From contig CAWFRC010000001.1 of assembly GCA_963818155.1 (NCBI GenBank), positions 7,730 through 71,729 of the forward strand: a stretch of DNA of 64,000 nucleotides, given 5' to 3'. Source of the DNA: an uncultured Alphaproteobacteria bacterium. GTDB taxonomy: Bacteria > Pseudomonadota > Alphaproteobacteria > Rhizobiales > Xanthobacteraceae. The position numbers were made by a program, and so were the translations under genes. This document shows, piece after piece, positions 36,623 to 60,926 of the stretch. The notes beneath the pieces are model-generated. The model did not search any database. It worked only from the letters and a program-made list of their open reading frames with translations, and was not told where the DNA came from. Within the stretch, counting starts at the first letter, position 1. Every line of letters starts with the position of its first letter.

Positions 36623-36665
36623 CCCCAAGCGTCGCGCAGATACTGAGATCTTTTTCGCCCGGCCG

Positions 36666-37547
36666 TCAGCCGGAGACTTTGCTGGCCTCGCCAGCGCGTA
36701 GCGTGATCTCAACGACCTGCAATCCGGCCGACGTGAGACGCGAGGGAAACGTATCCTTCAATCGGTCTTCGTGGATCGGGATGACGCGCCGGTGTTCGCC
36801 GCCGACCGCCTTCAGCATCGCGGCCGTCGCGAAAATCAGATTGGATTGACTGCCGACCGCAAGGCCGATTGGCACGTATTGGGGATTATCTTTGTCGAGC
36901 CCCGTAAGATTGTCATAAGTGTACAAAAGGTCTCCGGCGAAGACCCAAGCGTCCTGACTGTTGCGTGCACCGTCATTACGTACGGTCACGTACATCGAGC
37001 CGTAGGTATGCGTGTCAGCAGCAAGGTTGACATCGATCCCCGGCAGCACGTCCTCGCGATCGCCGTCGATGGCGATCATGCGGCCCTGCCGGGTGAGTTC
37101 GACCGCCTTGACGATATCGGCCGGATCGCCGGCGCCGACGAGAAACAGATATTCCGGACCGAGCGTCAGAGCCCAAACCCATTTCTCGATCTCGCGCTGC
37201 TGAATGTAAAATGTGGCGTTGGGAAAGTGGTCGATCGCCCCCATGTGATCGAAATGGGCGTGGGTAATGAAGACCGCCGTGACATCGGCCGGGGTAACGC
37301 CGCATTCCGAAAGCACTCGAGCCGGACCGTGAAAGTTGGTGACCCCATAGAGCTCGGCCAGCGCTTTCCCATAATTCACGTGATCGTAGCCGGTGTCGAT
37401 CAGGATCGTGTGTCCGCTGCCCTTGAGCAGCGCATAGGCATACGGAAGCTTGCGAATGCCCTGATATTGCGGCCCATAAAGCATCACGCTCAGCGGAAAT
37501 TTCTCGACCGCGGCATGTTCGAGCACCCAAATCGAATAGTCGCCCAT
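36666..37547 (-). CDS. MBL-fold metallo-hydrolase (paralogue 2, divergent subfamily)
   Basis: THAHFDHMG motif. 293 aa. Confidence 0.85.
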   Translation of the reverse strand: MGDYSIWVLEHAAVEKFPLSVMLYGPQYQGIRKLPYAYALLKGSGHTILIDTGYDHVNYGKALAELYGVTNFHGPARVLSECGVTPADVTAVFITHAHFDHMGAIDHFPNATFYIQQREIEKWVWALTLGPEYLFLVGAGDPADIVKAVELTRQGRMIAIDGDREDVLPGIDVNLAADTHTYGSMYVTVRNDGARNSQDAWVFAGDLLYTYDNLTGLDKDNPQYVPIGLAVGSQSNLIFATAAMLKAVGGEHRRVIPIHEDRLKDTFPSRLTSAGLQVVEITLRAGEASKVSG

Positions 37548-43716: not shown

Positions 43717-46320
43717 ATGCTCGCGCAAGGCCAAATTTCTGACGCTTCGGCCGAAGGGGGATCCGCACTTGCGCGATCCCCCGACGTTTGGATGCAGATT
43801 CGCGGGCTCACCAAATCGTTCGCCGGTGAGCTCGCATTGGACGAAGCCAACCTCGATATCAAAAAGGGGGAAGTTCATGGGCTGGTAGGCGCCAACGGCG
43901 CCGGCAAGTCCACCCTGATCCGATGCCTGGCGGGCGTCACTCTGGCGGATCGTGGACGGATTACTGTTGACGGCGCCGAACTTCCTCAAGGCTCGCCGCA
44001 GGCGTCGGAGCAGGCCGGGCTGGCCTTCATCCACCAGGAACTCAATCTGGTCCCCCATTTCAGTGCCCTGCAGAACATGCTGCTCGGCGTTCCTAAGGCC
44101 AACCGCTTCGGTTTGATCGACTGGAGGCGTTCGAGCACCCGCGCCCGCGCCGCGGCCGAACGTATCGGCGTGCACTTCCCGCTCGAGACCCGGGCCTCCG
44201 ACCTCTCCGTCGCCGAGCGCTGGCTGGTGATCATCGGCAAGGCGCTGATGCGCGACGCCAGCATGATCGCAATGGACGAGCCGACCGCATCCCTTTCGGG
44301 CCCCGAGAGCGACAAGCTGTTCGCGATCATCCGCGATCTTTCCCGTGACGGTGTCGCGATCCTCTACGTATCCCATCGCCTCGAAGAGGTCCTCGACCTC
44401 TGCGATCGGATCACCGTCCTGCGGGACGGCCGGATCGTCGACGACGCCGAGCGCGGACGCCTCGACAAGAAGGGGCTCGTGCGCGCCATCATCGGCCACG
44501 ATATCCACTCGCCCGAAGACCGTGAACGCTTCACCGCGGACCGATCGGGCAGGCCCGTCTTTTCGGTTCGGGACGTCACCTGGCGCGGCGCGGTGAAGGG
44601 CGTCAGCTTCGACGTCTATCCCGGCGAGGTGTTGGCGCTTGGCGGATTGGTCGGAGCCGGGCGCACCGAGCTGGCGCATCTCGCAGCCGGCGTAGAGCGG
44701 CCCGACGAGGGTCACTTCGAGCTTGATGGAACGCGGCTCGATATCGCCAACGAAGCCGAGGCGGTCGCGGCCGGAATAGCTCTCGTGCCAGAAGAGCGCC
44801 GTTCGCAAGGCCTGATGCTCCAGCAATCCGTTGGCTTCAACATCAACATCGCATCGCTTGCAAACTTGCGCACTGTTCCCGCGCTGCCGTTTGTGTCTGC
44901 CGGCAAAGGGCGTCGTCGCGCCGACGGCTTCGTCGACAAGCTCGGCATCAAGACCCCGAGCAGCGCCACCAAGATCGCCAGCCTTTCTGGCGGCAACCAA
45001 CAAAAGGCGCTGATCGCCCGCTGGCTGCGTCCGGGCATCCGGCTCCTGATCCTCGACGAACCGTCGCGCGGCGTCGACGTCGGTGCCCGCGAGGAGATCC
45101 ACGATACCATTCGCTCCCTTGCCCGCTCCGGCGTGGGCATTATCGTGATCTCCTCCGACGTTGAGGAGCTTGCAGCGCTCGCCGATCGTGTTGTCGTCAT
45201 GCGCGAGGGACACCTCACAGGTGAGCTCACCGGCCCCGACATAACCGAGGCCCGGATCATTGAACTCAGCTATCACGACGCCGATGGCGGCGGAGGAGAA
45301 CAAGGCTTGACCACACGGAGCGAAGCTGCAGCGGGAACCGCGCTCGGCCGCAATCGGATTGACTGGAAGCGCCTCGGTCTGACGTTCCTGTCGCGCTACG
45401 CCACCATCTTTGGGCTTCTGCTCATGATCCTGGTCTTCTCGATCATGGCGCCCGACACGTTCTTCTCGCGTGCCAACTTTCTCAACATCTTGAGCCAGGC
45501 ATCGCTGACCGCCATCATCGCCGCAGGACTGACCTACACGCTTGTCGTCGGCGAGTTCGATCTCAGCATCGGTTTCGTGGCGAGCTTCATCGGCCTGATC
45601 GTTGTCGGCTTCATGTCCTATCAGGGATTGCCGATCTGGCTCAGTATTGCCGCCGCTCTCGCCATCGGCATCGGCCTTGGATTGATCAACGGCGCGCTGG
45701 TCACCAAGGTACGGATAAACGCCGTCATCTCAACGCTCGGCTTGGGCACGATGTTGACGGGTATAGGCTTCTCCTACAGCGCCTTCCCGATCGCCACCGG
45801 CATACCCCGTGCCTTCACCAACCTGTCGCTCGGCCGGGTGCTGTTCGGGATTCCGAACCCGGTCTTTTTCATGCTCGGTATTCTTCTGGTCCTCTGGGTG
45901 ACGCTCAACAAGACCGATATCGGCCAGAAAATGCAGGCGGTCGGCAGCAATATCGAGGCGGCCCGGCTCTCCGGGATCCGCGTCGACCGCATCAAGATGT
46001 TCGCATTTGCGACAGCCGGGCTCTGTGCGGCCATCACCGGCACGCTGCTTTCGTCGCTTCTGGGCAGTGGAACGCTCGGCGTCGGAGACGGCTATCTTCT
46101 CGATGCTTTTGCCGCCGTCTTTCTGGGTTCGGCGACGTTACGAGAAGGCGAGTTTCATATCGTCGGCACCTTCGTGGGCGTGCTCATCCTCGCAGTCGGA
46201 TTCAACGGTCTCGCCATTCTCGGCGCACCCACGCACTTTCAGCCGATCTTCAAAGGAGGAATTCTGATCCTCGCAGTCGGCGTATCGGCGTTGGCAAGAC
46301 GCTACGCCGCTTCGCGCTGA
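43717..46320 (+). CDS. Sugar ABC transporter: tandem ATPase (RbsA-like) fused, as assembled, to a permease (RbsC-like)
   Basis: Two ABC cassettes (GANGAGKST; LSGGNQQK..LILDEPSRG), then ~330 aa of polytopic permease in the same frame. The likely true start is ATG 43792. Confidence 0.8.
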   Translation: MLAQGQISDASAEGGSALARSPDVWMQIRGLTKSFAGELALDEANLDIKKGEVHGLVGANGAGKSTLIRCLAGVTLADRGRITVDGAELPQGSPQASEQAGLAFIHQELNLVPHFSALQNMLLGVPKANRFGLIDWRRSSTRARAAAERIGVHFPLETRASDLSVAERWLVIIGKALMRDASMIAMDEPTASLSGPESDKLFAIIRDLSRDGVAILYVSHRLEEVLDLCDRITVLRDGRIVDDAERGRLDKKGLVRAIIGHDIHSPEDRERFTADRSGRPVFSVRDVTWRGAVKGVSFDVYPGEVLALGGLVGAGRTELAHLAAGVERPDEGHFELDGTRLDIANEAEAVAAGIALVPEERRSQGLMLQQSVGFNINIASLANLRTVPALPFVSAGKGRRRADGFVDKLGIKTPSSATKIASLSGGNQQKALIARWLRPGIRLLILDEPSRGVDVGAREEIHDTIRSLARSGVGIIVISSDVEELAALADRVVVMREGHLTGELTGPDITEARIIELSYHDADGGGGEQGLTTRSEAAAGTALGRNRIDWKRLGLTFLSRYATIFGLLLMILVFSIMAPDTFFSRANFLNILSQASLTAIIAAGLTYTLVVGEFDLSIGFVASFIGLIVVGFMSYQGLPIWLSIAAALAIGIGLGLINGALVTKVRINAVISTLGLGTMLTGIGFSYSAFPIATGIPRAFTNLSLGRVLFGIPNPVFFMLGILLVLWVTLNKTDIGQKMQAVGSNIEAARLSGIRVDRIKMFAFATAGLCAAITGTLLSSLLGSGTLGVGDGYLLDAFAAVFLGSATLREGEFHIVGTFVGVLILAVGFNGLAILGAPTHFQPIFKGGILILAVGVSALARRYAASR

Positions 46321-48714: not shown

Positions 48715-49587
48715 TTAGGAGCTGTTTCCATTGAGGCCCGGGCCGATGAAACGGCTCACGTCCGCAATGGTCACGCCCCGCCCCCCGTTTTCCGTCTTGC
48801 ATTCGGAAAGCGTTTGCAGCGACCTGCTCGGCGAAGTGACCGCCAGCGCCGCGGAAGCCTTCGCGGCGCCGTGGCTGTCATCCCATTCCTGCGCCGAGTG
48901 CTTCATCGCCCAAATGGCTGCCTGGGTGCGATTGCGGACCCGCACTTTGCGCAAGATCGCTTTGACATGGACTTTGACGGTCGCTTCGGTGATGTCGATC
49001 TTCCGCGCAATGACCTTGTTTGACGACCCCTCGACAATGCACCGCAAAATACAATTCTCGCGAAACGACAATTGTGGCCACTCGAGTTCGGCCGCTGCCG
49101 CCATCCTTGGCGCAGGGTCATGCTGGTAGTGCTCGATCCTCTGGTACCGCTCCTCCCCCTGAGGATGCCGGACATAAAATAGCAGCTCCGGCGGCAGGAT
49201 CGTCTCTCCCAGCATGACGAGTTCCAGCGCCTTGATGAACGCGTCGGATTTCTCCTCGCTATCGAAATAGACGTTCGCCCCCGCTTGGAACGCCGCGACC
49301 ATTTCCGCCGAACGGCTGCGGTTGCCCAGCACCGCCACGCGCCCATCCGGATGCTGCTCCTTGAAAATCTTGATTTGCGCTAGCGCAATATTGGCATCGC
49401 CATTCGACTCTATGATCAGAAAGAGTTGATCGTTTCGCTGGGCCACGTTTGCTGCGATATCTTCTAAGGAGGCCACCGACGCGACAACGCGAAAATTGGC
49501 GTCGCCGAGGATATGCGTCAATCCCTCCCGCAACAGAGCATGTGGCCCGATGAGAATAATGCTGAAAGGTCGGCGTCGCATGGACAT
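48715..49587 (-). CDS. LuxR/FixJ-type regulator with degenerate receiver domain
   Basis: C-terminal HTH (LSFRENCILRCIVEGSSNKVIARKIDITEATVKVHVKAILRK). The N-terminal receiver-like fold lacks the acidic pocket by eye (IGPH.., LFLIIESNGD). Confidence 0.8.
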   Translation of the reverse strand: MSMRRRPFSIILIGPHALLREGLTHILGDANFRVVASVASLEDIAANVAQRNDQLFLIIESNGDANIALAQIKIFKEQHPDGRVAVLGNRSRSAEMVAAFQAGANVYFDSEEKSDAFIKALELVMLGETILPPELLFYVRHPQGEERYQRIEHYQHDPAPRMAAAAELEWPQLSFRENCILRCIVEGSSNKVIARKIDITEATVKVHVKAILRKVRVRNRTQAAIWAMKHSAQEWDDSHGAAKASAALAVTSPSRSLQTLSECKTENGGRGVTIADVSRFIGPGLNGNSS

Positions 49588-50318: not shown

Positions 50319-50999
50319 TCAGGACGGCGGCAGCACATACCGGCGCGCCCCGCTATCATCGAGCACAAACAGCGGCGAATAAACGGCGGAAGCATCGACG
50401 TCAGTCACCATCGTCATGGTGCGGTTGTCGAGGATCAACCACCCGTTGCCCGCATAAGCGCCGACGACCATGTGATCCTCGCCGCGGCGCCTGTTGTGAA
50501 CGATCACCAGGCGCACGCGCTCCGGTGCGATTCCGACCTGCCGCAAAGCGAAATACTTGGCGAGCGCATAGTCTTTGCAATCTCCGGCTCCGAGGCTGAG
50601 CACTTCGAGAGGCGACAGCCAAGCGCCTGGCGTCGGTCGCAGCAACAAGTTGATGGTGCGATTGATGTGGCCGAATACCGCCCGGCCACGATAGTTTCTC
50701 GCCTCCTCGACGATCGCCGTGAGTTTGTGCACCGCTCGGCAATCCGACGAGGCGTCTTCGGTGCACGCATTCATCGCTTCTTGATCGCTTGCGATCCGCG
50801 CCAGCTCGTCGCGCCATTTGGCGGCAACGCCGTTGGCCTCGTCGTGGAGGAGGATGCTGTCGCCGCCGAAGGGATCGTGCGGCAAAGATGCGTGCAGAGC
50901 CGCCGTGAACGCGAGAATGAATGCGCCGACGGCGAGGAGGCCGGGCACACAAGCGGCAATTCTAACGATGATCACGCGCACGACCAGACCCACTGTCAT
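50319..50999 (-). CDS. Bacterial transglutaminase-like cysteine proteinase (BTLCP, LapG-like, peptidase C93)
   Basis: Cys-His-Asp context GDCKDYALAKY ... EDHMVV ... WLILDN. N-terminal membrane/signal segment from ATG 50999. Confidence 0.8.
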   Translation of the reverse strand: MTVGLVVRVIIVRIAACVPGLLAVGAFILAFTAALHASLPHDPFGGDSILLHDEANGVAAKWRDELARIASDQEAMNACTEDASSDCRAVHKLTAIVEEARNYRGRAVFGHINRTINLLLRPTPGAWLSPLEVLSLGAGDCKDYALAKYFALRQVGIAPERVRLVIVHNRRRGEDHMVVGAYAGNGWLILDNRTMTMVTDVDASAVYSPLFVLDDSGARRYVLPPS

Positions 51000-51255
51000 C
51001 GAGCCTCCACCCGTGCGAACTCGAGACCGAATTCTGGCGAACGCGGCAGCAGTGCCGGCAGCTCTTTCGGAGTAAGTGTACAAATCTTTCGCGCCCGCAT
51101 GGTTGCCACTCGAAGCGATCTCAACAACCTCGTTTCCACGTCCTTCTTGCGCGAACAAGACCAAGCGACATCGTTATCCGAAATAGTAGATGCCTTCTGC
51201 CGCCTGGTGCCGATCATCGCGAATCGAAAACGCTCGCTCGCAACAGAGATGCACC

Positions 51256-51462
51256 ATGCCGTGGTATTCATTCGTTGCGTGTTGGCCTGAAGGTGGCGCA
51301 GATGACACGCGCACTACCAGTTTGTCGGACCAGGACGAAGCTCGCCACTACGCTCATCTAATCATCCGCGAGCTCAAATCACATCCGGACTATCGTCATG
51401 CCGGACAAAGAATGGTGGTGCGGGACGACGATGGCCATGTGGTTGAGGTTATTCCGTTTTAG
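51256..51462 (+). CDS. DUF6894-like small protein
   Basis: 68 aa. MPWYSFV...DEARHYAHLIIRELK...VVRDDDGHVVEVIPF resembles the MPRYFFH...E.VPF family pattern. Confidence 0.55.
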   Translation: MPWYSFVACWPEGGADDTRTTSLSDQDEARHYAHLIIRELKSHPDYRHAGQRMVVRDDDGHVVEVIPF

Positions 51463-51821: not shown

Positions 51822-53174
51822 TCAGGCAGGATCTTTGCCCGGCTGAGACGGCTGAGGTGAGATCCCGAAGCGTTTCATTTTGGTCCAGAGAGTGACGCGA
51901 GAAATTCCGAGGCTTTCTGCGGCGCGTCCGACCCGGCCTTGATGCCGGGACAATGCTTCGACAATGCGCTGGCGCTCCGCCGCGGCCCGGGCGCTGTTAA
52001 GCGTAGACTTCGACGATGGCACAACTCCTTCGGCAACTTCGCCGGGAAAAACGTCAGCCACCCCGATCCTTCCGCCGTTGGCAAAGCTAAGCGCGCGCAC
52101 GAGGCGATTGCGCAGTTCCCGAACATTGGCGGGCCAATCATGCGCACGCATCGCGGCAAGCGCTTCGGCCTCGACCGGCAACGCCGGCACGCCGAGTTCC
52201 GACGCGACATCGGCGAGCAACACCTCGAGCATCGGCTCGATGTCGGCTTGCCGCTCGCGCAACGGCGGAACGGCGATCTCGATGATGGCGACGCGGTTCA
52301 CCAAGTCTGGAGTGAGCTGATCGCGCAACCTCACGGCGGAAAATTGGGATGAGGCGAGAATCCTCGCCTCGAACGGCAGCTCGGTGCCTATGTCGCCGAT
52401 GCGCATGAACCGCTTGCTATCCATCGCCTGAATCAGCTTGCCCTGAACGGCCGTCGGCAACTCGCTGATCTCGTCGAGAAAGAGCGTGCCGTGACCGGCC
52501 TGCTCCAAGCCTCCGGTATGCAATTCGGCTCCGTCGGTGCCGGCACGGAGCACCTCTCCAAACAACAATCTTTCCCCGTCGTGACCGGTAAGACTGCCGC
52601 ATCGCAAGGCGACGAACGGCTCACTCGCGCGAGCCGAAAGATAATGGGTGAACCGCGCTGCAACTTCCTTGCCACTGCCCGGCTCGCCGACGATGAGCGC
52701 ACTCACCGTGCTGCTGGCAAGGCGCTCCAGGCGGCGTTTCAACTCGACCATGGCCACGGAGGCCATGGTCGGATCGGGCCAGCTCCTCCTGTCCGCGAAC
52801 GAAAGCCGGCCACTCATGACTCGCCGCAGCGCCACGACGAGCGCCGACATGTCGTAAGGCTTCTGCAAATAATCCGCCGCGCCATGTTTGAGGAGGCGAA
52901 CGGCTTGATCGACATCGACTGACGCGGCCGTAAATATAATCGGGGTCGAACCGACATAGGTCAGCGCGTCCCGGTAAATTTGCTCGACATCGCTGTCCGG
53001 TAGACGGACTTCGCTTACGATCGCGTCGAATCGCAACGAGCGAAGCAGTCCCATGGCTTGCGCACGATTTTTTGCAGCCTGCGGCCTGAACCCTTCGTTC
53101 TCAAGGGTGCTAATCAACTTCCCAGATAAATCTTCGTCCGCCTCAATCAACAGAATCTTGGCAGCGTTCGGCAT
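51822..53174 (-). CDS. NtrC-family AAA+ enhancer-binding-type regulator lacking GAFTGA and the receiver Asp
   Basis: Walker A GEPGSGKE, Walker B TLFLDEI, R-finger NVRELRN, Fis-type HTH. The loop reads LFGEVLRAGTDGAELHTG instead of GAFTGA. The receiver reads AIVSEVRLPD. Confidence 0.85.
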   Translation of the reverse strand: MPNAAKILLIEADEDLSGKLISTLENEGFRPQAAKNRAQAMGLLRSLRFDAIVSEVRLPDSDVEQIYRDALTYVGSTPIIFTAASVDVDQAVRLLKHGAADYLQKPYDMSALVVALRRVMSGRLSFADRRSWPDPTMASVAMVELKRRLERLASSTVSALIVGEPGSGKEVAARFTHYLSARASEPFVALRCGSLTGHDGERLLFGEVLRAGTDGAELHTGGLEQAGHGTLFLDEISELPTAVQGKLIQAMDSKRFMRIGDIGTELPFEARILASSQFSAVRLRDQLTPDLVNRVAIIEIAVPPLRERQADIEPMLEVLLADVASELGVPALPVEAEALAAMRAHDWPANVRELRNRLVRALSFANGGRIGVADVFPGEVAEGVVPSSKSTLNSARAAAERQRIVEALSRHQGRVGRAAESLGISRVTLWTKMKRFGISPQPSQPGKDPA

Positions 53175-54086
53175 TCCCCAGCTCCAACGCACCAGCCGCT
53201 CGCTTACCCTTCAACACAGCACGCGCTGAAAAAGCGATAGCGGGTACCTCCCTGGCCGGACCACCAGCATGTTGCGCAACCTTGACGCCTGTCAAGCAGA
53301 TGCAACGACACGAAGCTTGCCCTTGTTTTCAGCAATTCAGTTGTGATCTGCGTCACCCAAGCGATCCGCAGGGCCGGAAACGCGATGCTTCATGGCCTTC
53401 GGCCCAACAGACAATGCGCGACAAAATGCAACTGATATTTGTATTTTTTTAGCTCGAGAACATGCCTATCCGGGGCGTTAGCGTTGATTTTTAGTTTGGG
53501 CATGGCCACCGTCCCACATGCCGTTTACTGCCACGCGCCATTTCCTATTGGGCAATTCGATATCGCGTGGCGACGGGCGCGTCTCAGATATTTCACTTGC
53601 TTTGCCGGTGTTTTGGAAGTGGTGCCCGGCCGTTGTGCGATCACGGCGGCGTGAACGAAGTTAACCAACGTTCGCCCGAGGGCGGCCCCGTCAAATTCCA
53701 AAAGCGGCCATTTTCAGCGGCGATTCCGCCGTCGGTTAAATGATCTGAACAGCGCGTTGTCACTACTTTACCTAAGAGTAGATTGACGCTTTCAATCAAA
53801 GATAGTTGTTTGCTGCTGTGTCGGAGGGTCAACTCCGGCGGGCAGAGAGGGAGGCGGCCGAACCGGGACATTGATGTGCTTTTTTGGTTACGATCGGCGT
53901 CGGGACTGATCGCCTTGCGGTTCTTTGCGGGTCGTTTGTTTCGAACCGGTCTCCAGAACAGTCAAAGTCTAAATCATTCTTATTCGACGTGAATGGCTGC
54001 CGCAGATCGTTCGTGGATCGCAGACGCAGAAGATCAGCGATTCTACGAAGTGATGGGTGTGTCTTCACGTCTAGAGGAGACACGTC

Positions 54087-54755
54087 ATGGGTATCAATTT
54101 CTGGGATCCGAACAATCAGAATCAGGATCAAGGCCAGGGCCAAGGCGAAGGCCAGGGCCAGCTGAGCCTCCAGGGCCAAGGTCAGGCCCAGGCTCAGATT
54201 GCCGCCGATCTGAACGGCAATCTGAACGGCAACGGCAACGGCAATCTGAACGGCAACGGCAACTTCAACGCCGACGGCAACCTCAACGGCAACCTCAACG
54301 ACAACGTCAATCACAACACCGATACGGTGTGCGTCGACGTCAGTGTCGATGCGAGCGTGACGCCGCTGATCGGCGATCTGAGCGACGCCACGGCCCTCTA
54401 CATGCCGCAGGACATTGCTCAGAGCTTCACTGCCGGCGGCACCGACACCGCCATCGCTCTCGACCAGATCAACAGCCTTGTTGCCAACAACACGGCGCAA
54501 GATCTGCACAACTCGGATCATTCCAGCATGTGGGGCAGCGGCGCGACGGAATCCGGCGCTGTCGACGTCGGCGACATCAGCCAGGGCGCCTTGGCCACGG
54601 GCCAACTGCAGGGTGCGACTTCGGCGGCCGCGACGGTTGACGCGTTCACCCAGAGCATCGTTCTCGGAGCCAACATCCAGAACAACTCGTTCACCCTCAC
54701 CATCACGGGCCATGATTCGGCCGTGACGGCCGGTGACGCCGCCCATCACGGGTAA
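54087..54755 (+). CDS. Gln/Gly- and Asn/Gly-rich low-complexity protein, candidate T1SS substrate
   Basis: AGGAGA RBS 7 nt upstream. No signal peptide. aa 9-37 are (Q-G/A)n and aa 42-77 are (N-G/L)n. The C-terminal half shares the motif LGANIQNNS with the next gene. Confidence 0.7.
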   Translation: MGINFWDPNNQNQDQGQGQGEGQGQLSLQGQGQAQAQIAADLNGNLNGNGNGNLNGNGNFNADGNLNGNLNDNVNHNTDTVCVDVSVDASVTPLIGDLSDATALYMPQDIAQSFTAGGTDTAIALDQINSLVANNTAQDLHNSDHSSMWGSGATESGAVDVGDISQGALATGQLQGATSAAATVDAFTQSIVLGANIQNNSFTLTITGHDSAVTAGDAAHHG

Positions 54756-54768
54756 ATTCTAAAGCGTG

Positions 54769-54798
54769 AGGCCCGTGCGCTACGGCGTGCGGGCCTTT
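54769..54798 (+). terminator. Hairpin after the 222-aa gene (12-bp stem incl. 2 G-U, loop uacg, short U tract)
   Basis: aggcccgtgcgc-tacg-gcgtgcgggcct followed by tt. Hand-folded. The weak U tract suggests partial termination at most. Confidence 0.4.
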
Positions 54799-54904
54799 AC
54801 ATCCGCAACTCGACGGGGGACGGGGTCGCGGATGGCTCTGCTCTCAATTCGGCTACCGGTAATACAACCGCGTTTGTCGTAACAGCCAACGATCGAGTGG
54901 TGAC

Positions 54905-56887
54905 ATGGCATCCTCCGACGTGCTCAACGAACTGATTGCGCACTTTGCCGGCTACCTGCGGCTTCCTCCCGGTGACAACTACACCGTGAAGATTCTCTAT
55001 GAGGGAAGCGCGGTCCCTGACACCGGCCAAGCCGACGACAACGCGAAATCCCATGCGGTCCATCACCCGGACCTCGATCAGTTTCACGGCGCGCACCTGA
55101 ACGTACCCCCAATACCGGCGTTCAAGCCCGACCATTTATTCTATTTCACACCGCATAAGTTCCACAACACGGACTTTCATTCTCCGCACCCAACCCTGAT
55201 CCTGCCCCACGCGCTGCCGCCTTTGCTCAACGGTCCGGCCGGCGCCGGCGGTGGCGGCGGCGGTGGCGGCAATTTCCAGATTACAGCCAGCTACCAAAGC
55301 GGCGGCGACGAGACGATACTCGACATCCGCCAGGTCAACGTGCTCTCGAACAACAATTTGCTGATCAACAATCAGCAGGTGACCGCGGCGACCGAGGCTT
55401 ACGAGCACAACCTAAAGCACGCCGAAAAGGTCCTCGGCGACATGGTCCAGCAGGCGAACGACGCCATTCCCAACAGCCTCAATCTCTCCGCTGACAATAC
55501 ATCCTCAGGTCTGCAGCAATTCGTCGAAGCGCGCGATGCGCACCCGATCAGCACGCTGGCGCAAGACGCACCGTTCTCCACCCACCCAGGGCAATACGTG
55601 AACGGAACGCCGGTCACCGACGGCTCCAATCCGCATCAGACAACCGACAACCTGCTCACCACGGTTGCCAATGCCGAGCAGACAGGGTTGACGGGCCCGC
55701 CGCAAGCACCGGCGGGCGACTACCAGCATGACCACATCGCAACAGTGTCGGTCGGCTCCAACTATCAGGCGAACGACGCCGCCATCGTCAATGGGGAAGG
55801 CCTCACCGCGATGTTGGCGGTGCAAGGGAACTACTATCAGACCGAAGCGATCATCCAAACGAACGTGGTGGGCGGCAGCGACCATATTTCCGGCGGCGGC
55901 CCGGGCGCGGCTTCGATCGCAGCGAACACGGTGCAGAATATCGCCGATATGCAGAACCAGGTGCCGACACTCACGTCCGGCGGATCCGGGACCACTACAT
56001 CGGGCCTGAATTGGTCGGTGACGGTCCTCAACGGCGACCTAGCCGATGTTCACTCCCTGGTACAAACGAACTACCTGCAAAATAACAACGTGGTCTATCA
56101 AACCACCGAGATGGGCGAGAGTCTGACGGTCGCCGGCAGCAACATTCAGACGAACTCCGCCGAGTATCAGAATTTAACGTCGAACTACCAATTGATCATC
56201 GTCGAAGGCAACTACAACCAGGACGACCTGATCTATCAGACCAACGTCATGTTGGATAACAACAACGTCAGGTTCCACGGTGGCCACGGCGGCGGCACTG
56301 CGAGCGCGACAGGCGGCGGCGACAACGTCGTCAACGACGCCACGATCGTCGATACCGCTAACCACAATTATCAGGCGTTTACCCCCGCCGCCCAGTCCGT
56401 CGTACAAGCCTTGGAAAGCCAGTCGGGGACCGTCGACCCCGCCTCGGTGTTGAGCGCGTTTCCGAACCTGTTCGGAAACATCAATGTGCTTGTGGTCACG
56501 GGCAACTATTACGACATAAACTACATCTCGCAGACCAACATCATGTCGAACTCGAACGTCGTGCAAATGTGGGGCGGCCATGGGGCGACGGACACGGTCA
56601 ATACCGGAAGCAACATAGCGGTCAACGCGGCCACCATCATCGACGGCGGCAGCGCGTTGTCGCCCTATCTGCAGGGCAGCTACTACAACGACATGATCCT
56701 GCTGCAGACCAATATCATCGGCAACAATGCGAGTGCCGCCGCACACAATCCGAACCAGTTCGTGCCCGAACTTGTGGCCTTCACGGGCGCCTTGGACTCC
56801 GCGCATCAAGGTTCCGAGGCCACGATCGCGGCCGCGGCAAGCGTGCAACAGCATCATCACGACGGTGTAGCCGGCGTGATGCACTAA
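54905..56887 (+). CDS. 660-aa repeat protein with GNYY-x4-I-x-QTN-type repeats, candidate T1SS substrate (non-RTX)
   Basis: 5-6 copies: VQGNYYQTEAIIQTNVV, LVQTNYLQNNNVV, VEGNYNQDDLIYQTNVMLDNNNV, VTGNYYDINYISQTNIMSNSNVV, LQGSYYNDMILLQTNII. Gly8 tract at aa 115-122. No signal peptide. Confidence 0.75.
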   Translation: MASSDVLNELIAHFAGYLRLPPGDNYTVKILYEGSAVPDTGQADDNAKSHAVHHPDLDQFHGAHLNVPPIPAFKPDHLFYFTPHKFHNTDFHSPHPTLILPHALPPLLNGPAGAGGGGGGGGNFQITASYQSGGDETILDIRQVNVLSNNNLLINNQQVTAATEAYEHNLKHAEKVLGDMVQQANDAIPNSLNLSADNTSSGLQQFVEARDAHPISTLAQDAPFSTHPGQYVNGTPVTDGSNPHQTTDNLLTTVANAEQTGLTGPPQAPAGDYQHDHIATVSVGSNYQANDAAIVNGEGLTAMLAVQGNYYQTEAIIQTNVVGGSDHISGGGPGAASIAANTVQNIADMQNQVPTLTSGGSGTTTSGLNWSVTVLNGDLADVHSLVQTNYLQNNNVVYQTTEMGESLTVAGSNIQTNSAEYQNLTSNYQLIIVEGNYNQDDLIYQTNVMLDNNNVRFHGGHGGGTASATGGGDNVVNDATIVDTANHNYQAFTPAAQSVVQALESQSGTVDPASVLSAFPNLFGNINVLVVTGNYYDINYISQTNIMSNSNVVQMWGGHGATDTVNTGSNIAVNAATIIDGGSALSPYLQGSYYNDMILLQTNIIGNNASAAAHNPNQFVPELVAFTGALDSAHQGSEATIAAAASVQQHHHDGVAGVMH

Positions 56888-56938: not shown

Positions 56939-59020
56939 ATGGATAATAGTGGAGGCTCGCCGCCGTCGAATGGTCCTACGGCAGGCAAAGCGATCAACGG
57001 CGCCAACGGGACCCAGCGCAACGGAGCCAGCGGCACGAGCACAGCCAATGGCACGAACGGAGGTGGCGCGGCAAACGGAGCCGGCGTCGTAAACAGCAGC
57101 AGCGTCGCAAATACCACCAAGGTTGCCGCGAACGCCGGCAGTGTCGTCGCGAACGGTGGCAAGCCTGCCAACGGCGGCAAGCCCGCGAACGGAGCCAAGC
57201 CCGCAAACGGCAGCAATGGCGGACAAGGAGGCAACGGCGCCAAAGCCGGCGCCAAGGCCGCGCTGCAACAGCGAGCCGCCGACCGCGAATTTCAAAACGT
57301 ACTCGGCAAGACGATCGAGATCGCCCGGCGCAAGATCGTCGTTGTTGGCATCTTCTCGCTCGCAGCCAATCTGCTGCTGCTGGCGATGCCGATCTATCTC
57401 TTCCAGCTGTCGGACCGCGTCTATACGAGCCGCAGCACCGATACCCTGGTCATGCTGTCCGTGGTGGTGGTCGGCGCGATCGCCGCCTACGTCTTTCTCG
57501 ACATGATGCGCCGGCTCATCCTCACGCGAATCGCGGTCGAGACGGAATCGAGGCTCGGCGCCCCGGTCCTCAGCGCCGCCGCCAAAGGCGCGCAAAGCGG
57601 CATAAGCCGCGATTTTCAGACGCTGGGCGACCTGCAGCAACTGCGTGCATTCATCACTGGGCCGGTGATCCTGATGATGCTGGATGCCCCGGTTGCACCG
57701 TTCTATTTGCTCGCTGTTTACATGATTCATCCGCAGCTCGGCATGATCGTCACCGTGACCGGCGTTGCCCTTATGGTCATCGCGCTTCTTAACCAGAAGC
57801 TCACCGCCGTCCCGTTTGCGCAGGCCAACACCTATGCGACGCGCGCGAATCTTGCCTCCGATGCCATGGCGCGCAATGCGCAGGTGATGAACGCCATGGG
57901 GATGATTCCCGAAGGCGTGCAAATTTGGGGGCGGGAAACCGCGGAGTCGCTTAAGGCACATGTGACCGCCCAGGATCGCAACACTTATCTTGCGGGCATT
58001 TCGAGGATGGTGCGGCTCTGCACCCAGGTCGCAATCCTCGGCTGGGGAGCTTGGCTCGCGCTGCACGACGAACTGACTGGCGGCATGGTAATCGCCGCTT
58101 CGATCGTGGCGAGCCGGGCGCTGGCCCCGCTCGAGGGCACGATCGAAGGCTGGCGCGGCTTCATTCACGCGCGCTCGGCTTGGGCGCGCATCAAAGCGCT
58201 GCTGCAGAATTCGCCGTTGAATGTCGAGCGGCTGCGACTGCCCAATCCGAGCGGCCGGCTTACGGTCGAGCGGATTTTGTATGTGCCGCCGCCGAGTAAG
58301 AAAGTTGTCCTCAATGGCGTCTCGTTCGAGCTGGAGCCCGGGGAATCCCTGGCGATCGTCGGGACTTCGGGCGCCGGCAAGTCGACGCTGGCGCGTATGC
58401 TGGTCGGATCGATCACGCCCACTGCGGGCAACGTCCGGCTCGACTGGATGGATTTGCGCAACTGGGATCCGCGCCAGTTCGGCGAAAGCGTCGGCTACCT
58501 GCCCCAGGACGTGCAGCTGTTCCCGGCGAGCATCAAGGCCAATATTGCGCGCATGCGCGAGGACGCCACTGACACGGCGATTTTCGAGGCCGCCGAGCTC
58601 GCCGACGTCCACGAGATGATTTCTCAGTTCCCGGCCGGTTATGAGACGCAGGTTCTGATCGACGGCAGCCCGCTGTCCGGCGGCCAGAAGCAGCGCATCG
58701 GTCTCGCCCGCGCCTTCTTCGGCAGTCCGCGGCTGGTCGTTCTCGACGAGCCGAACTCCAACCTCGACGCCGCCGGCGAGATGGCGCTTGCCCGCGCGCT
58801 CAGTCGAGCCAAAGACAAGAAAATTACCATCGTTGCGATCACGCAGCGGCCGTCATTGCTGCAAAGCGTCGACCGCATCATGATCATCAAGGACGGCACC
58901 ACGCAGACCATCGGCAAGCGCGATGAGATCATCCCGCTGTTGAACGGCCGCCCGCCGAATGCCAACGGTTCGCCTCCGCCGGCAAATACGACCAATGGAA
59001 AACCTCGTCTCGAAGCTTAA
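56939..59020 (+). CDS. Type I secretion system ABC transporter (PrtD family) with ~118-aa Asn/Gly/Ala-rich N-terminal extension
   Basis: TMD plus NBD (GTSGAGKST, LSGGQKQR, VVLDEPNS). No C39 domain. No in-frame ATG/GTG/TTG between codon 1 and the first TM helix. Confidence 0.9.
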   Translation: MDNSGGSPPSNGPTAGKAINGANGTQRNGASGTSTANGTNGGGAANGAGVVNSSSVANTTKVAANAGSVVANGGKPANGGKPANGAKPANGSNGGQGGNGAKAGAKAALQQRAADREFQNVLGKTIEIARRKIVVVGIFSLAANLLLLAMPIYLFQLSDRVYTSRSTDTLVMLSVVVVGAIAAYVFLDMMRRLILTRIAVETESRLGAPVLSAAAKGAQSGISRDFQTLGDLQQLRAFITGPVILMMLDAPVAPFYLLAVYMIHPQLGMIVTVTGVALMVIALLNQKLTAVPFAQANTYATRANLASDAMARNAQVMNAMGMIPEGVQIWGRETAESLKAHVTAQDRNTYLAGISRMVRLCTQVAILGWGAWLALHDELTGGMVIAASIVASRALAPLEGTIEGWRGFIHARSAWARIKALLQNSPLNVERLRLPNPSGRLTVERILYVPPPSKKVVLNGVSFELEPGESLAIVGTSGAGKSTLARMLVGSITPTAGNVRLDWMDLRNWDPRQFGESVGYLPQDVQLFPASIKANIARMREDATDTAIFEAAELADVHEMISQFPAGYETQVLIDGSPLSGGQKQRIGLARAFFGSPRLVVLDEPNSNLDAAGEMALARALSRAKDKKITIVAITQRPSLLQSVDRIMIIKDGTTQTIGKRDEIIPLLNGRPPNANGSPPPANTTNGKPRLEA

Positions 59021-59050: not shown

Positions 59051-60389
59051 ATGGCAGGCGCAGTGATAGCGACTCGCGAGTGGTATGCGGATGTTCCGCG
59101 CCGCACGCACGTGCCAACCTCGGCGGGCATCATTTCGATGGTCTTGTTCGTGGTGGGATTTGGCTATTGGTCGAATACGGCTCTCATCGCTGGCGCGGTG
59201 ATCACCTCGGGCGCCTTCGTGACGACGGGCCAAAACAAGATCATTCAGCATCTGGAAGGCGGCGTCATCCGCGACATCCTCGTGCGCGAAGGCGACATCG
59301 TCGAGCCGGGCCAGACCCTGATCCAGCTTGACCCGACCGCTCCGCGATCGGAGCTTGACCGGCTGACCCTGCGTCACATGCGCTCTGAGGCAATGGAGGC
59401 GCGTCTTGTCGCCGAGATCCGCAACGAGCCGCAGGTGACATTTCCCGCCGACCTGTCGGCGCGGCGCAACGACACGGACATCAAATCCCTCGTCGGCGCC
59501 CAACAGCTCACGTTCGACGCCTGGCGCAAGAATTCTTGAAGCGGATATCGCCGCGTTGCAGGACGGCATAAGTGCTATCAAAGAGCGGATGAACGCGTCG
59601 CAAACGCAGAAGAAAGCGGTCGGGCACCAGATCGAGTTGATCGAAGAAGAACTCGCCAACAAGAGCGCGCTGTTGCCATCGGGTCTGGTGCGCAAGCCGG
59701 AAATCCTCGCCCTGCAGCGTGCCCAGGCTGCTCTGCAAGGCGAAATCGGCAAACTGGACGGCGAAATGGGCGAAGCCAAAGAGCAGATTGCCAAGACCGA
59801 GCAGCAGATCGTCGGTTTGCGCACGTCAGCGATCAAAGAGGCTGTCGAGCAGCTCCATCAAACCCGCGCGGAGATTGCCGACTTTCGCGAGCGCATTCGC
59901 ACCCAGCAAGGGATACTCGATCGCGTGAGCATCGCCGCGCCGGTGCGCGGTATTGTCGTCAAGTTGAGGTATCACACCACCGGGGGTGTCATCGAGCCCG
60001 GCAAGAACATCATGGAAATCCTGCCGCTGCGGGATAATTTGGTAATCGAAGTGCGCGTGCGTCCGCAGGATATCGATCACGTCAAAATCGGGCAGGAAGC
60101 GTCGATCCGTCTGACGGCACTCAACCGCCGCACCACGCCGACGCTGACCGGCAAAGTGCTCTATGTCTCTGCCGATGCGCTGCCGGATGATCTTCAGACC
60201 GTCCAGGGCCGCGAGGTTTACGTCGTCCGGATCGCGCTCGACGAAGAGCAGCCCCCGCCGATGCAAAATTTCAAGCCCAAACCCGGCATGCCGGCCGAGG
60301 TGTATATCAAGACCGCCGAGCGCACGTTTTTCGAATATCTGATGCAGCCGATCCGCGATAGCATGGCGCGTGCCTTCCGCGAATCGTGA
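59051..60389 (+). pseudogene. HlyD family T1SS periplasmic adaptor, interrupted by one frameshift at ~59531-59540
   Basis: ORF 59051..59539 holds the TM anchor and first lipoyl half. The frame of ORF 59556..60389 continues LEADIAALQDG... with the coiled coil, beta-barrel and C-terminus. Confidence 0.8.
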
Positions 60390-60926
60390 TTAAAACTGGT
60401 GCTGGTAACCCTCGACGCTCAACGGTTCCATCAGTTGCGCATCGAAGTAGCGCGACCACAGCGCGGATCTGATCTCGCGCTCGGCGGGGGGAGAAGCCGA
60501 GTGTTCCTCATCGAGCCGCTGGCTTTGCGGCACCGCCGCATCGAGCGCCTGAATGAACGACTCAGCGTTGCGGCATCCAGATATGAACCGGCTGTCGTTG
60601 GAAGCGCTGAGAAAGCACATCTCCTCGCCAACGAGATCGCCGGGCATCCCGGTAATGTCCGCCCAGGCACCGGCTTGCACCGCCGCCAGATCGTCGGTGT
60701 CGAGCGCCCCGATGTGGTACGTCGCGATGGACGTGATCAGCATGCCGAGAAAGCCGATCACATAAGGATCGTGCCATGCCGCATCGGGGATATTGCCTAA
60801 GCGCAGCCGAGTACCGTCAAGAAGCGGAATAATTTGAGCGACCGCAGCGCGACGCCCCCGATAAGTCTTCCACAAGCCAAACACTTTACGCTCCGTCGCC
60901 GAATGACGCCGACCCACCCGGCCCAA
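60390..60926 (-). CDS. Hypothetical protein, convergent with and abutting the T1SS adaptor gene
   Basis: Coding-like codon usage on reading. Only a TTG start at the ORF edge. Its stop codon directly abuts the hlyD stop (tgatta). Confidence 0.5.
   Translation of the reverse strand: MGRVGRRHSATERKVFGLWKTYRGRRAAVAQIIPLLDGTRLRLGNIPDAAWHDPYVIGFLGMLITSIATYHIGALDTDDLAAVQAGAWADITGMPGDLVGEEMCFLSASNDSRFISGCRNAESFIQALDAAVPQSQRLDEEHSASPPAEREIRSALWSRYFDAQLMEPLSVEGYQHQF

Follow-up and report, generated by a model that had tools for sequence, protein, structure and literature searches.

The window, i.e. the whole stretch of 64,000 nucleotides that was analysed, carries an ORF for a 660-aa repeat protein (54905..56887, + strand), hereafter BIG, which is 100% identical to the JGI entry P0001, annotated as 'hypothetical protein'. 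Upstream of it lies the gene of a 222-aa partner protein, hereafter SMALL (54087..54755, +), with a strong hairpin between the two. Downstream follow a PrtD-type type I secretion system (T1SS) ABC permease/ATPase (56939..59020, +), with a TIGR01842 score of 682.7 bits for a cut-off of 510, and an HlyD/AprE-type periplasmic adaptor (59051..60389, +), matched by TIGR01843 in both halves. The ABC protein of the window carries a low-complexity N-terminal extension of ~130 aa. In the window's hlyD a one-base insertion (an extra T, 59533/59534) breaks the gene into two ORFs; in contig L073, otherwise identical, hlyD is intact and encodes 445 aa. Because of this frameshift, the system may not be functional in the sequence at hand. 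Among the ORFs of the window that were scanned, none was TolC-like.

The order SMALL, hairpin, BIG, ABC, HlyD recurs in all loci with enough flank. For BIG-ABC-HlyD this amounts to 72 of 72 related loci, with the same result from independent gene calls, and the T1SS adjacency first remarked for this one protein generalises to its relatives. A SMALL homolog lies immediately 5' of BIG in 70 of 73 loci, the remaining three being cut by a contig edge. At 50% identity the family resolves into at least 748 clusters. Its members turned up exclusively in Hyphomicrobiales (Bradyrhizobium, Afipia, Nitrobacter, Microvirga, Roseibium and others), and some of them bear the automatic UniProt name 'Type I secretion protein'. 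Across genera BIG is conserved colinearly over its whole length, with no polymorphic module, and within Hyphomicrobiales the inheritance of the operon looks vertical.

Database searches returned zero families for BIG in Pfam and NCBIfam at E<=1 and zero in PADLOC at E<=0.1, with no defence-system match, and 52 family members gave nothing in Pfam at E<0.01 (stray single matches up to 0.1). A PDB profile search with BIG yielded one match, at E 0.16, in the helical insert described below, and the repeat-unit profile nothing below E 0.16. When the 58-aa unit profile was run against an index of 5.8 billion proteins it gave 43 candidates and one fragment match, a result with no bearing on other architectures. 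Literature searches by family accessions and on T1SS, non-RTX and solenoid topics found no paper on the family. The repeat, which the earlier note had called apparently undescribed, thus matches no existing Pfam, NCBIfam or PADLOC family; it had no name until now and marks out a sizeable, unstudied family.

SMALL has a low-complexity, Q/G- and N/G-rich N-terminal half (22% N+Q over the whole protein), a conserved C-terminal domain of ~135 aa (FxLDQVNxLVxN ... AFTQxIxxGANIQxNS) and an acidic, His-rich C-terminus. It belongs to no Pfam or NCBIfam family; its PDB profile matches, to circumsporozoite NANP repeats, were compositional and were rejected. A GC-rich stem-loop (54768..54797, +) stands ~12 nt after its stop codon, in a 45-nt segment that folds at -28.3 kcal/mol. 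For the corresponding 3' segment the value is -20 kcal/mol or lower in 65 of the 66 distinct loci; its median, -28.6, compares with -16.8 in control segments, and there are 59 different stem-loop sequences among the 66. At least four T occur in the following 10 nt in 34 of the 66 loci, and the weak T-run is the reason why a generic terminator scan missed the hairpin. The stem-loop may act as a terminator, an attenuator or a 3' stabiliser; no hairpin of comparable kind was found after BIG, and Rfam returned no riboswitch or other RNA family on 53100-55000. So strong and conserved a structure between the two genes suggests that SMALL is probably produced in excess and BIG at the level of the transporter.

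Concerning regulation, a gene for a LuxR/FixJ-type regulator (48715..49587, -) shows a clear GerE domain (E 1.8e-17) and a weak receiver domain (Response_reg 19.5 bits, below cut-off). It aligns over its full length, at sub-threshold score, with the CsgD model, and tblastn locates a similar regulator upstream in most related loci. The sigma-54 promoter consensus shows no enrichment and is absent upstream of SMALL. A sigma-54 activator gene adjoins the SMALL-BIG locus.

On the opposite strand, d178 (60390..60884, -) encodes a conserved protein of ~160 aa. Of 73 loci, 49 have a homolog of it no more than 8 kb away; it matches nothing in Pfam, NCBIfam, PADLOC or PDB, and elsewhere it frequently forms a pair with a LuxR-type regulator. 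Bacteriocins are a common export of T1SS operons, and a small conserved neighbour of no known family could suggest that BIG or SMALL is an exported bacteriocin or toxin, antibacterial or host-directed, with d178 as its immunity or regulatory partner. We hold this to be highly improbable. BIG shows no toxin or enzymatic domain in Pfam, NCBIfam or PADLOC, and both its colinear conservation across genera and the seemingly vertical inheritance of the operon speak against such a role; d178 has no clear transmembrane segment, and its position beside a LuxR regulator, on the opposite strand in most loci, suggests regulation over immunity.

A bipartite repeat unit

The earlier note had described, at 55310-56725 (aa 136-607 of the ORF), six copies of one motif alternating with a second. 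All six are present, as are the three copies that it gave for the second, at aa 456-483, at aa 555-580 and, more weakly, at aa 321-347. Motif 1, G-N-Y-Y-x4-I-x-Q-T-N-h-h-x-N-N-N-V-V, was delimited at aa 137-155 (degenerate, with RQVN), 303-330, 368-399, 430-458, 526-556 and 588-607. Motif 2, G..G-x-N-h-x-x-N-x-A-x-I-x-D, has five copies, those at aa 277-296 and 404-423 being new, and the 'QTN' at aa 415 is part of motif 2, not of motif 1. Rather than as two alternating units, the motifs are better described as a single bipartite unit of ~58 aa.

The repeat is real and not a product of chance. Against 20,000 shuffles, Q[TV]N is seen 7 times for 0.71 expected, a composite motif-1 regex 5 times for 0 expected, and the motif-2 core 5 times for 0.12 expected. 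As BLASTP self-comparison returned the identity match alone, units were compared in its place by hhalign of sub-alignments: units A-D matched at E values of 1e-9 to 5e-19, the last half unit at ~1e-6 and the degenerate copy near the N-terminus at ~1e-4. The units are imperfect (~30-45% identity to one another); among 52 homologs, down to 26% identity, every copy has its Q and N either invariant or conserved to at least 90%.

The series opens with the degenerate unit N1 (aa 126-155, ITASYQSGGDETILDIRQVNVLSNNNLLIN; 55280..55369, +), in which Q143 and N145 are invariant and strands are predicted at aa 126-132, 137-148 and 152-155; its ~1e-4 was obtained against units B and D. Between this first unit and the repeat core lies a helical insertion (aa 161-261; 55385..55687, +), with helices at aa 161-186, 200-211, 214-224 and 245-261 according to DSSP on the predicted model. 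The first copy of motif 2 (aa 277-296, HIATVSVGSNYQANDAAIVN; 55733..55792, +; N290 invariant) is predicted as a 20-residue strand. Unit A (55811..55957, +) joins motif 1 at aa 303-330 (GNYYQTEAIIQTNVV) to motif 2 at aa 335-351, with Q318, N320, N341, N345 and A347 invariant in the alignment of homologs (n=52), from which the invariant residues of units B to E are also taken. In unit B (56006..56173, +), motif 1 at aa 368-399 (LADVHSLVQTNYLQNNNVVY) is followed by motif 2 at aa 404-423 (TVAGSNIQTNSAEYQN), and Q387, N389, G411 and N417 are invariant; hhalign and the model support both units, and unit D as well. Unit C (56192..56353, +) comprises aa 430-458 (LIIVEGNYNQDDLIYQTNVMLDNNNV) and aa 459-483 (GGHGGG..GGGDNVVNDATIVD), with invariant Q445, N447, N477 and I481, and aligns with unit D at E 4.6e-19; two short helices, aa 494-518 (56384..56458, +), are predicted between them. 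Unit D (56480..56644, +) is made of aa 526-556 (INVLVVTGNYYDINYISQTNIMSNSNVV) and aa 557-580 (GGHG..TGSNIAVNAATIID), with invariant G533, Y536, Q543, N545 and G568, and unit E, a terminal half unit of motif 1 only (aa 588-607, YLQGSYYNDMILLQTNIIGN; 56666..56725, +), keeps L599 and N603 invariant.

Predicted fold of the repeat core

AlphaFold2 gives pLDDT values of 70-94 over aa 124-607 of full-length BIG. The trimmed core is predicted all-beta, with strands of 20-22 residues, at a pLDDT of 85.6 and a pTM of 0.82, and the five models of it agree (mean pLDDT 83-86). Structure prediction hence yields the ordered repeat fold that had been anticipated. The further proposal of a beta-solenoid is compatible with this ordered beta repeat core. 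Foldseek finds no significant fold match for the core in the PDB (best E 0.026, all TM <0.15). The weak matches are led by FapC and CsgA, with 9u4u and 8c50 at E 0.026 and 0.053; 21 of the 28 are folds that we take to be beta-solenoids or beta-helices, and none is porin-like or of the meander-type antiparallel kind. A beta-solenoid fits these data, though they fall short of proving it. BIG has no Pfam match among right- or left-handed beta-helix families (Beta_helix, Hexapep or similar), tapirin, SufBD, LpxA, pectate lyase and EtpA score E >=0.25 and TM <=0.1 against the core, and a parallel beta-helix uses coils of 18-25 residues, whereas the repeat period here is ~58 aa. Foldseek of BIG against BFVD gave no meaningful match.

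AlphaFold2 is known to over-predict solenoids for repeats, in a study that dealt with perfect repeats (PMC11795689). The repeat could thus be real and its stacked fold a prediction artefact, the Asn/Gln-rich low-complexity segment being largely disordered or otherwise folded. The lack of a significant structural neighbour agrees with this. A mean-field DCA on 223 family sequences (Meff ~140), meant to tell in-register stacking from hairpins, was uninformative, its signal being dominated by gap/indel artefacts. We nevertheless think an artefact rather unlikely, since units that are so divergent from each other keep specific positions invariant family-wide, as is typical of a folded repeat, since hydrophobic and polar residues alternate along the long strands, and since all five models concur.

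In the fold that we favour, the core (aa 126-155 and 277-607) would be built from a ~20-residue strand bearing G-N-Y-Y..I-x-Q-T-N..N-N-N-V and a return segment bearing G-x-N..N-x-A-x-I-x-D. Five and a half such units would stack in register, a topology that we infer, the order being a model prediction. In such a stack the invariant Gln and Asn from each unit would line up as ladders, and the result would be an unusually wide two-sheet beta-solenoid with Gln/Asn ladders instead of RTX-type calcium sites.

RTX proteins are the Ca2+-binding beta-roll passengers of type I secretion (PF00353, HemolysinCabind; review PMC3034196), and the PrtD/HlyD context, the Gly- and Asp-rich loops of motif 2 (GGHGGG, GGGDN) and the presence of RTX blocks and of the Ca-dependent MpAFP among the weak Foldseek matches could mean that BIG is a divergent RTX-like beta-roll, in which these loops and Asp bind Ca2+ and drive post-export folding. 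This is very unlikely in our judgement. The GGxGxDxUx nonapeptide is absent, in line with the earlier claim that BIG contains no RTX repeat (the regex GG.G.D has no match in its 660 aa); neither HemolysinCabind nor any other RTX model matches BIG at E<=1, and the 52 members also lack a PF00353 match. Moreover, the unit is bipartite with a period of ~58 aa, not 9 or 18, the predicted strands have 20-22 residues against 3-4 in RTX proteins, and the invariant residues are Gln/Asn (Q-T-N, N-x-A-x-I-x-D) instead of Gly/Asp. Few columns of the repeat are less conserved than those of the G-rich loops, and nothing points to calcium sites.

Probable export and likely role of BIG and SMALL

Outside the repeats, BIG begins with a His/Pro-rich region predicted to be disordered (aa 1-123; 54905..55273, +), with 26 H+P in the first 110 aa against 37 in the other 550, which ends in a Gly run, GPAGAGGGGGGGG, exactly at 55232-55270, both as already described. 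Inside this predicted disorder (pLDDT ~26) lies a conserved peptide, E-L-I-(W/A)-H-F-A-G-Y-L-R-L-P (aa 9-21; 54929..54967, +): E9, H13, F14, A15, G16, Y17 and L18 are at least 90% conserved in 52 homologs, and 156 of 223 family sequences have xHFxGY somewhere in their first 60 aa. The C-terminal tail (aa 608-660; 56726..56884, +), likewise predicted disordered (pLDDT <50), is a candidate type I secretion signal. It carries a conserved PELVAFTG and a terminal HHHD-x-h-(A/G)-(S/G)-h-h-H, and 209 of the 223 members have an Asp at -8 from the C-terminus followed by a hydrophobic/small pattern. The pI of BIG is 4.6 (family median 4.13), K+R amounts to a family median of 2.9%, and Cys is missing from BIG and from 136 of the 223 members. 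In a crude hydropathy scan, neither BIG nor SMALL showed a hydrophobic segment at the N-terminus.

BIG hence combines the traits of a T1SS passenger (no cleavable N-terminal signal peptide, acidic, Cys-poor, a flexible conserved C-terminal region) with its context, the cognate ABC and membrane-fusion protein genes lying directly downstream. From the missing signal peptide, the acidic, Lys/Arg-poor and Cys-free composition and the conserved tail of ~55 residues, predicted disordered, we infer T1SS export: the most likely route would be the downstream PrtD/HlyD-type system, with BIG passing unfolded, C-terminus first, and folding outside the cell. The acidic, His-rich C-terminus of SMALL does not resemble the conserved C-terminal motif of BIG, so that a secretion signal common to both is not evident.

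With RTX proteins BIG shares genes adjoining a PrtD/HlyB-type ABC and an HlyD adaptor, an acidic and Cys-poor composition with no signal peptide, a likely C-terminal signal that ends a flexible tail (predicted for BIG), and a repeat region of predicted stacked beta structure that could fold only post-export. Among non-RTX substrates, the haemophore HasA, exported by a PrtD/HasD-type T1SS, also has a presumed C-terminal signal and a PrtD-family ABC without C39. At their extreme C-terminus PrtG and HasA show an acidic residue and, after it, hydrophobic ones; so does BIG, although the Asp of BIG stands 8 residues from the end and not 4. Region IV of the Marinomonas ice-binding adhesin (3p4g) offers a flat beta-solenoid face with ordered polar residues, as predicted for BIG. 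Neither HasA nor 3p4g has sequence or significant structural similarity to it (3p4g Foldseek E 4.2), and non-RTX substrates have no counterpart of the conserved N-terminal peptide WHFAGYL or of the obligate co-encoded small partner. LapA-like adhesins of T1SS are marked by a retention module at the N-terminus with a di-alanine LapG site, by RTX repeats towards the C-terminus and by T1SS-linked LapG/LapD genes. Compared with these, BIG lacks RTX repeats and its N-terminal 123 aa are predicted disordered; no LapD-like gene was seen. Pfam does match a BTLCP gene (PF06035) in the window, at 50319-51164; LapG/BTLCP control of BIG was considered and rejected, a BTLCP homolog occurring in 0 of 72 related loci.

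A further analogy is with the functional amyloids curli (CsgA/CsgB) and Fap (FapC/FapB). Like BIG, these have imperfect Gln/Asn-rich repeats and strand-turn-strand rungs (predicted for BIG), they come as side-by-side pairs of related proteins, one likely abundant and one minor, and their structures (9u4u, 8c50, 9nqd) are the top Foldseek neighbours of BIG, although non-significant (TM <0.15); a LuxR-family regulator lies near the genes of both curli and BIG. SMALL contains one copy of each motif, colinear with the first unit of BIG and weakly similar to it (P 4e-5 to 1.5e-4; hhalign probability ~50%). This could be read as a templated fibre, in which T1SS-exported, polymerising SMALL stacks on the BIG solenoid and BIG acts as nucleator or anchor, cf. 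CsgB-CsgA and FapB-FapC, in a functional-amyloid-like matrix. The 22% N+Q of SMALL, its excess over BIG as implied by the conserved hairpin, and the nearby regulator with its degenerate receiver and sub-threshold CsgD alignment would suit such a fibre. We see it as unlikely: besides the non-significant Foldseek matches and the weak SMALL-BIG similarity, the locus has no CsgG, CsgE, CsgF or FapF and a T1SS as putative exporter, BIG lacks the Sec signal peptide of curli and Fap and any Curlin_rpt (PF07012) match, and curli rungs have 19-23 aa against ~58 aa. In its boldest and quite speculative form, the SMALL-hairpin-BIG-ABC-HlyD module, conserved in Bradyrhizobium, Nitrobacter, Afipia, Microvirga and relatives, would be a third way, dependent on the T1SS, of building a templated Gln/Asn-ladder fibre or coat. 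SMALL, in which a long N/G/Q-rich spacer is joined to a single repeat unit, would serve as the abundant subunit and stack on a BIG of 5-6 rungs with ~58 residues per rung, and BIG would nucleate or anchor it at the surface through its N-terminal peptide. The product would be functional-amyloid-like, unrelated to curli and Fap, and of a new wide-solenoid fold.

The reading that we prefer, and to which we give a little over an even chance, is that BIG is a dedicated non-RTX T1SS passenger, a wide Gln/Asn-ladder beta-solenoid that works outside the cell together with SMALL, encoded just upstream. The most likely role of the pair, by analogy, is a structural one, extracellular or at the cell surface (matrix, fibre, coat or adhesin), in which BIG may serve as scaffold, anchor or template for SMALL.

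Almost all that is understood of T1SS passengers comes from RTX repeats, which fold on calcium outside the cell. The BIG family, large and strictly syntenic in bacteria of agricultural and environmental importance (Bradyrhizobium, Nitrobacter, Afipia, Microvirga, Roseibium), is built on another repeat, in which Gln/Asn are invariant and for which Pfam, NCBIfam and PDB offer no match, and always comes with a probably more abundant Asn/Gln-rich partner. Since the operon is present in several cultured and sequenced strains, the system is directly testable. If the proposal is true, it would reveal a second way for a protein to delay folding until after export, a new beta-solenoid geometry, and an extracellular structure of soil alpha-proteobacteria that has gone unrecognised and may matter for biofilm, root attachment or nitrifying-floc aggregation.

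Repeat architecture and novelty of the family

The open reading frame at 54905-56887 (+) encodes a 660-aa protein, here BIG, and all the features that an earlier note listed for it were found where they had been placed. Motif 1, with the family consensus h-h-V-x-G-(N/D)-Y-Y-x4-I-x-Q-T-N-h-h-x-N-x-N-V-V, is present in six copies (aa 137-155, degenerate, 303-330, 368-399, 430-458, 526-556 and 588-607) and alternates along the protein with motif 2, G-x-x-x-(S/T)-h-x-x-G-x-N-h-x-x-N-x-A-x-I-x-(D/N). The three copies of motif 2 noted earlier are present, but that count was incomplete, there being five in total (aa 277-296, 335-351, 404-423, 459-483 and 557-580); the 'QTN' at aa 415 is part of motif 2. 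Motifs 1 and 2 are best regarded as parts of a single bipartite unit of ~58 aa (alignment A4). This repetition is far above chance level, with the composite motif-1 pattern occurring 5 times in BIG versus 0 across 20,000 shuffles, and Q[TV]N 7 times versus a mean of 0.71 over as many. Profile-profile comparison of the ~60-aa units, derived from a 52-sequence family alignment, relates the full units A-D to each other with E of 1e-9 to 5e-19, the terminal half unit with E ~1e-6 and the N-terminal degenerate copy with E ~1e-4. Across family members with overall identity as low as 26%, the Gln and Asn of each Q-T-N either do not vary or are kept in at least 90% of sequences. The N-terminus is His/Pro-rich as described (26 His+Pro in aa 1-110 versus 37 in the other 550 residues) and is followed by a Gly run at exactly 55232-55270.

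In agreement with the earlier claim that the repeat is undescribed, BIG matches no Pfam-A, NCBIfam or PADLOC model even at E<=1, none of the 52 family members matches Pfam at E<0.01 (stray single matches only, up to the 0.1 limit), and neither the whole family nor the repeat unit found anything in PDB sequence-profile searches. The RTX motif GG.G.D is absent from all of BIG, as had been noted, and an RTX identity was rejected, with no nonapeptide, no HemolysinCabind match and a period of 58 aa, not 9 or 18. A cryptic calcium beta-roll is likewise disfavoured, since the invariant residues are Gln and Asn and the Gly loops are poorly conserved.

Scanning 1.84 billion representative proteins with full HMMER gave at least 748 clusters at E<=1e-3, of which 498 reach E<=1e-30. 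Nearly all of the best 150 of the 748 are ~620-730 aa long and align end to end, hence the architecture is fixed. Among 185,579 species genomes 68 loci were found, every one from Hyphomicrobiales or from unclassified MAGs of the Alphaproteobacteria or Pseudomonadota, the named genera being Bradyrhizobium, Afipia, Nitrobacter, Tardiphaga, Pseudolabrys, Roseiarcus, Microvirga, Roseibium, Stappia and Salinarimonas. Family members stand in public records as 'hypothetical protein', a few bearing the automatic UniProt name 'Type I secretion protein', evidently because of their genomic context, and no paper naming the family or its accessions was found in the literature. As its members are already deposited, what is new is the recognition and description of the family, not its sequence.

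Predicted structure of the repeat domain

The full-length AlphaFold2 model, built with the 52-sequence alignment, predicts aa 1-123 and 608-660 as disordered (pLDDT <50) and aa 124-607 as an ordered, mainly beta domain (pLDDT 70-94) with helical insertions at aa 161-261 and 494-518. The trimmed core (aa 270-610) has a mean pLDDT of 85.6 and a pTM of 0.82, with agreement among all five models. Each predicted unit consists, in order, of a short strand (hhhV), a G-N turn, a 20-22-residue strand carrying Y-Y..I-x-Q-T-N..N-N-N-V, a Gly-rich loop and a return segment of ~20 residues, continuous or kinked at G-x-N.

Foldseek searches of the PDB with the full and trimmed models gave no significant neighbour (best E 0.018-0.026, all TM-score <0.15). 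By our own classification of the 28 entries weakly matched by the trimmed model, 21 are beta-solenoids or beta-helices (FapC, twice, CsgA, tapirins, SufB/D, left-handed beta-helix acyltransferases, a Marinomonas antifreeze module, EtpA, Awp adhesins, pectate lyase and RTX blocks), the remaining 7 align over short stretches of 56-63 columns, and none is a porin or a meander sheet. The beta-solenoid suggested earlier is consistent with the ordered beta repeat core that is predicted, but the PDB matches are all non-significant and the topology is not proven; the solenoid-type weak matches and the invariant, unit-periodic Gln/Asn support a model in which the units would stack in register into a two-sheet solenoid with unusually wide rungs of ~58 residues. 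Over-confidence of AlphaFold2 in solenoids predicted from repeat sequences is documented, in a study that used perfect repeats (PMC11795689). Unlike those, the units of BIG are imperfect, ~30-45% identical to one another, yet show position-specific conservation, which disfavours an artefactual fold. In predicted structure and composition BIG is like the curli and Fap subunits, although it lacks the sequence and locus features that define them.

The conserved operon and its neighbourhood

Genes for a PrtD-type ABC transporter and an HlyD/AprE adaptor come after BIG in all loci with enough downstream sequence, and independent gene calls agree; the T1SS adjacency noted for the window is therefore general, and the operon with the PrtD/HlyD system is strictly conserved. 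The ABC protein of the window scores 683 bits against TIGR01842 (cut-off 510). Ordinary PrtD proteins lack the low-complexity N-terminal extension of the BIG-linked ABC proteins (56939-57330 in the window; also in L001-L071), which ranges from ~66 to 455 aa and is N/G/A/K-rich in the window and acidic in Roseibium. A one-base insertion within 59530-59540 breaks the window hlyD (59051-60389, +) into two ORFs: an extra T at 59533/59534 gives GAATTC in the window versus GAATC in L073, an otherwise identical JGI metagenome contig with an intact hlyD of 445 aa. The hlyD spacing is 22 nt in the window versus an in-frame 21 nt in all other related loci. The extra T may reflect either an error in sequencing or a genuine inactivation.

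Searches of Pfam, NCBIfam, PADLOC and the PDB matched nothing to d178 (60390-60884, -), a conserved protein of ~160 aa whose gene lies no more than 8 kb from the operon in 49 of 73 loci. Most loci of Bradyrhizobium, Afipia and Nitrobacter have this gene beside that of a LuxR-type regulator, divergent from SMALL (see below). A short hydrophobic stretch, PYxVGFxxMLIT, is conserved in the protein but is not clearly a transmembrane helix. The window further encodes a BTLCP/LapG-like transglutaminase-fold cysteine protease (PF06035; 50319-51164, -) with a ~140-aa N-terminal extension, adjoining a DUF6894 gene (51190-51462, +); no LapD-like partner was seen, and the protease is not conserved beside the operon in other genomes. 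A LuxR/FixJ-family regulator (48715-49587, -) aligns near full length, under cut-off, with the NCBIfam CsgD model, and its receiver domain scores 19.5 bits, under the Pfam threshold; it may be an atypical, unphosphorylated response regulator. Two ORFs, 43717-46320 (+; 867 aa, two ABC_tran stretches and BPD_transp_2 in one frame) and 30722-32614 (-; 630 aa, a branched-chain-type permease and an ABC ATPase in one frame), could be fused transporter genes or an ORF-listing artefact. Two MmgE/PrpD paralogs lie at 27262-28671 and 35249-36712.

The companion protein and proposed export

Immediately 5' of BIG in 70 of 73 loci, the other three being cut by contig ends, lies the gene for SMALL, an Asn/Gln/Gly-rich protein without known family (54087-54755, +); some loci have two paralogs. 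It measures 222 to ~370 aa across species and combines a variable Q/G- and N/G-rich low-complexity half with a conserved ~135-aa domain (F-x-L-D-Q-V-N-x-L-V-x-N ... A-F-T-Q-x-I-x-x-G-A-N-I-Q-x-N-S). The N-terminal half (54087-54350) has QGQGQ and NGNLNGNGN runs that form a low-complexity region of variable length, and the PDB 'matches' of SMALL, circumsporozoite NANP repeats only, were dismissed as compositional. The two motifs of the conserved domain align colinearly, but weakly, with the first unit of BIG, made up of N1 and the first motif 2 (hhalign P 4e-5 to 1.5e-4, probability ~50%). This weak similarity, with analogy, is the whole support for a templated fibre in which SMALL would stack on BIG, which we regard as unlikely. 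A bacteriocin with its immunity protein is disfavoured by the absent toxin module, the full-length conservation of BIG and its apparently vertical distribution.

In 65 of 66 distinct loci a strong GC-rich stem-loop (54768-54797 in the window, with equivalent positions in L001-L072) lies 3' of SMALL, starting a median of 11 nt past the stop codon, with a median folding energy of -28.6 kcal/mol versus -16.8 in control windows. Since its 59 distinct sequences differ, it is the structure that is conserved. At least four T lie within 10 nt after it in 34 of 66 loci, and no comparable hairpin was found 3' of BIG (median -13.5). The stem-loop after SMALL is most simply read as an intrinsic terminator, attenuator or 3' stabiliser, in which case SMALL would be the abundant product and BIG co-expressed with the transporter. 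The haemolysin operon has a similar arrangement between hlyA and hlyB. Between a sigma-54 activator gene and SMALL lie ~900 non-coding bp (53193-54086), without Rfam match or sigma-54 promoter consensus, likely to be an extensive regulatory region or a long 5' UTR.

The chemistry of BIG is passenger-like: its pI is 4.6, against a family median of 4.13 with K+R at 2.9%, Cys is absent, as in 136 of 223 family members, there is no N-terminal hydrophobic segment, and the predicted disordered C-terminal tail ends in a conserved motif (Asp at -8 in 209 of 223, then h-(A/G)-(S/G)-h-h-x). Although without the sequence and locus features that define RTX, BIG resembles RTX and other T1SS passengers in its putative function; it would be a T1SS passenger of non-RTX type, built from an undescribed repeat and lacking a significant structural neighbour in the PDB. 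We propose that the adjacent T1SS would export it unfolded, C-terminus leading, so that the conserved N-terminal peptide E-L-I-W-H-F-A-G-Y-L (aa 9-18) would exit last and, speculatively, could serve retention, docking or chaperone binding. Outside the cell BIG would fold into a Gln/Asn-ladder solenoid devoid of RTX-type calcium sites, and together with SMALL may act in an extracellular or surface structure.
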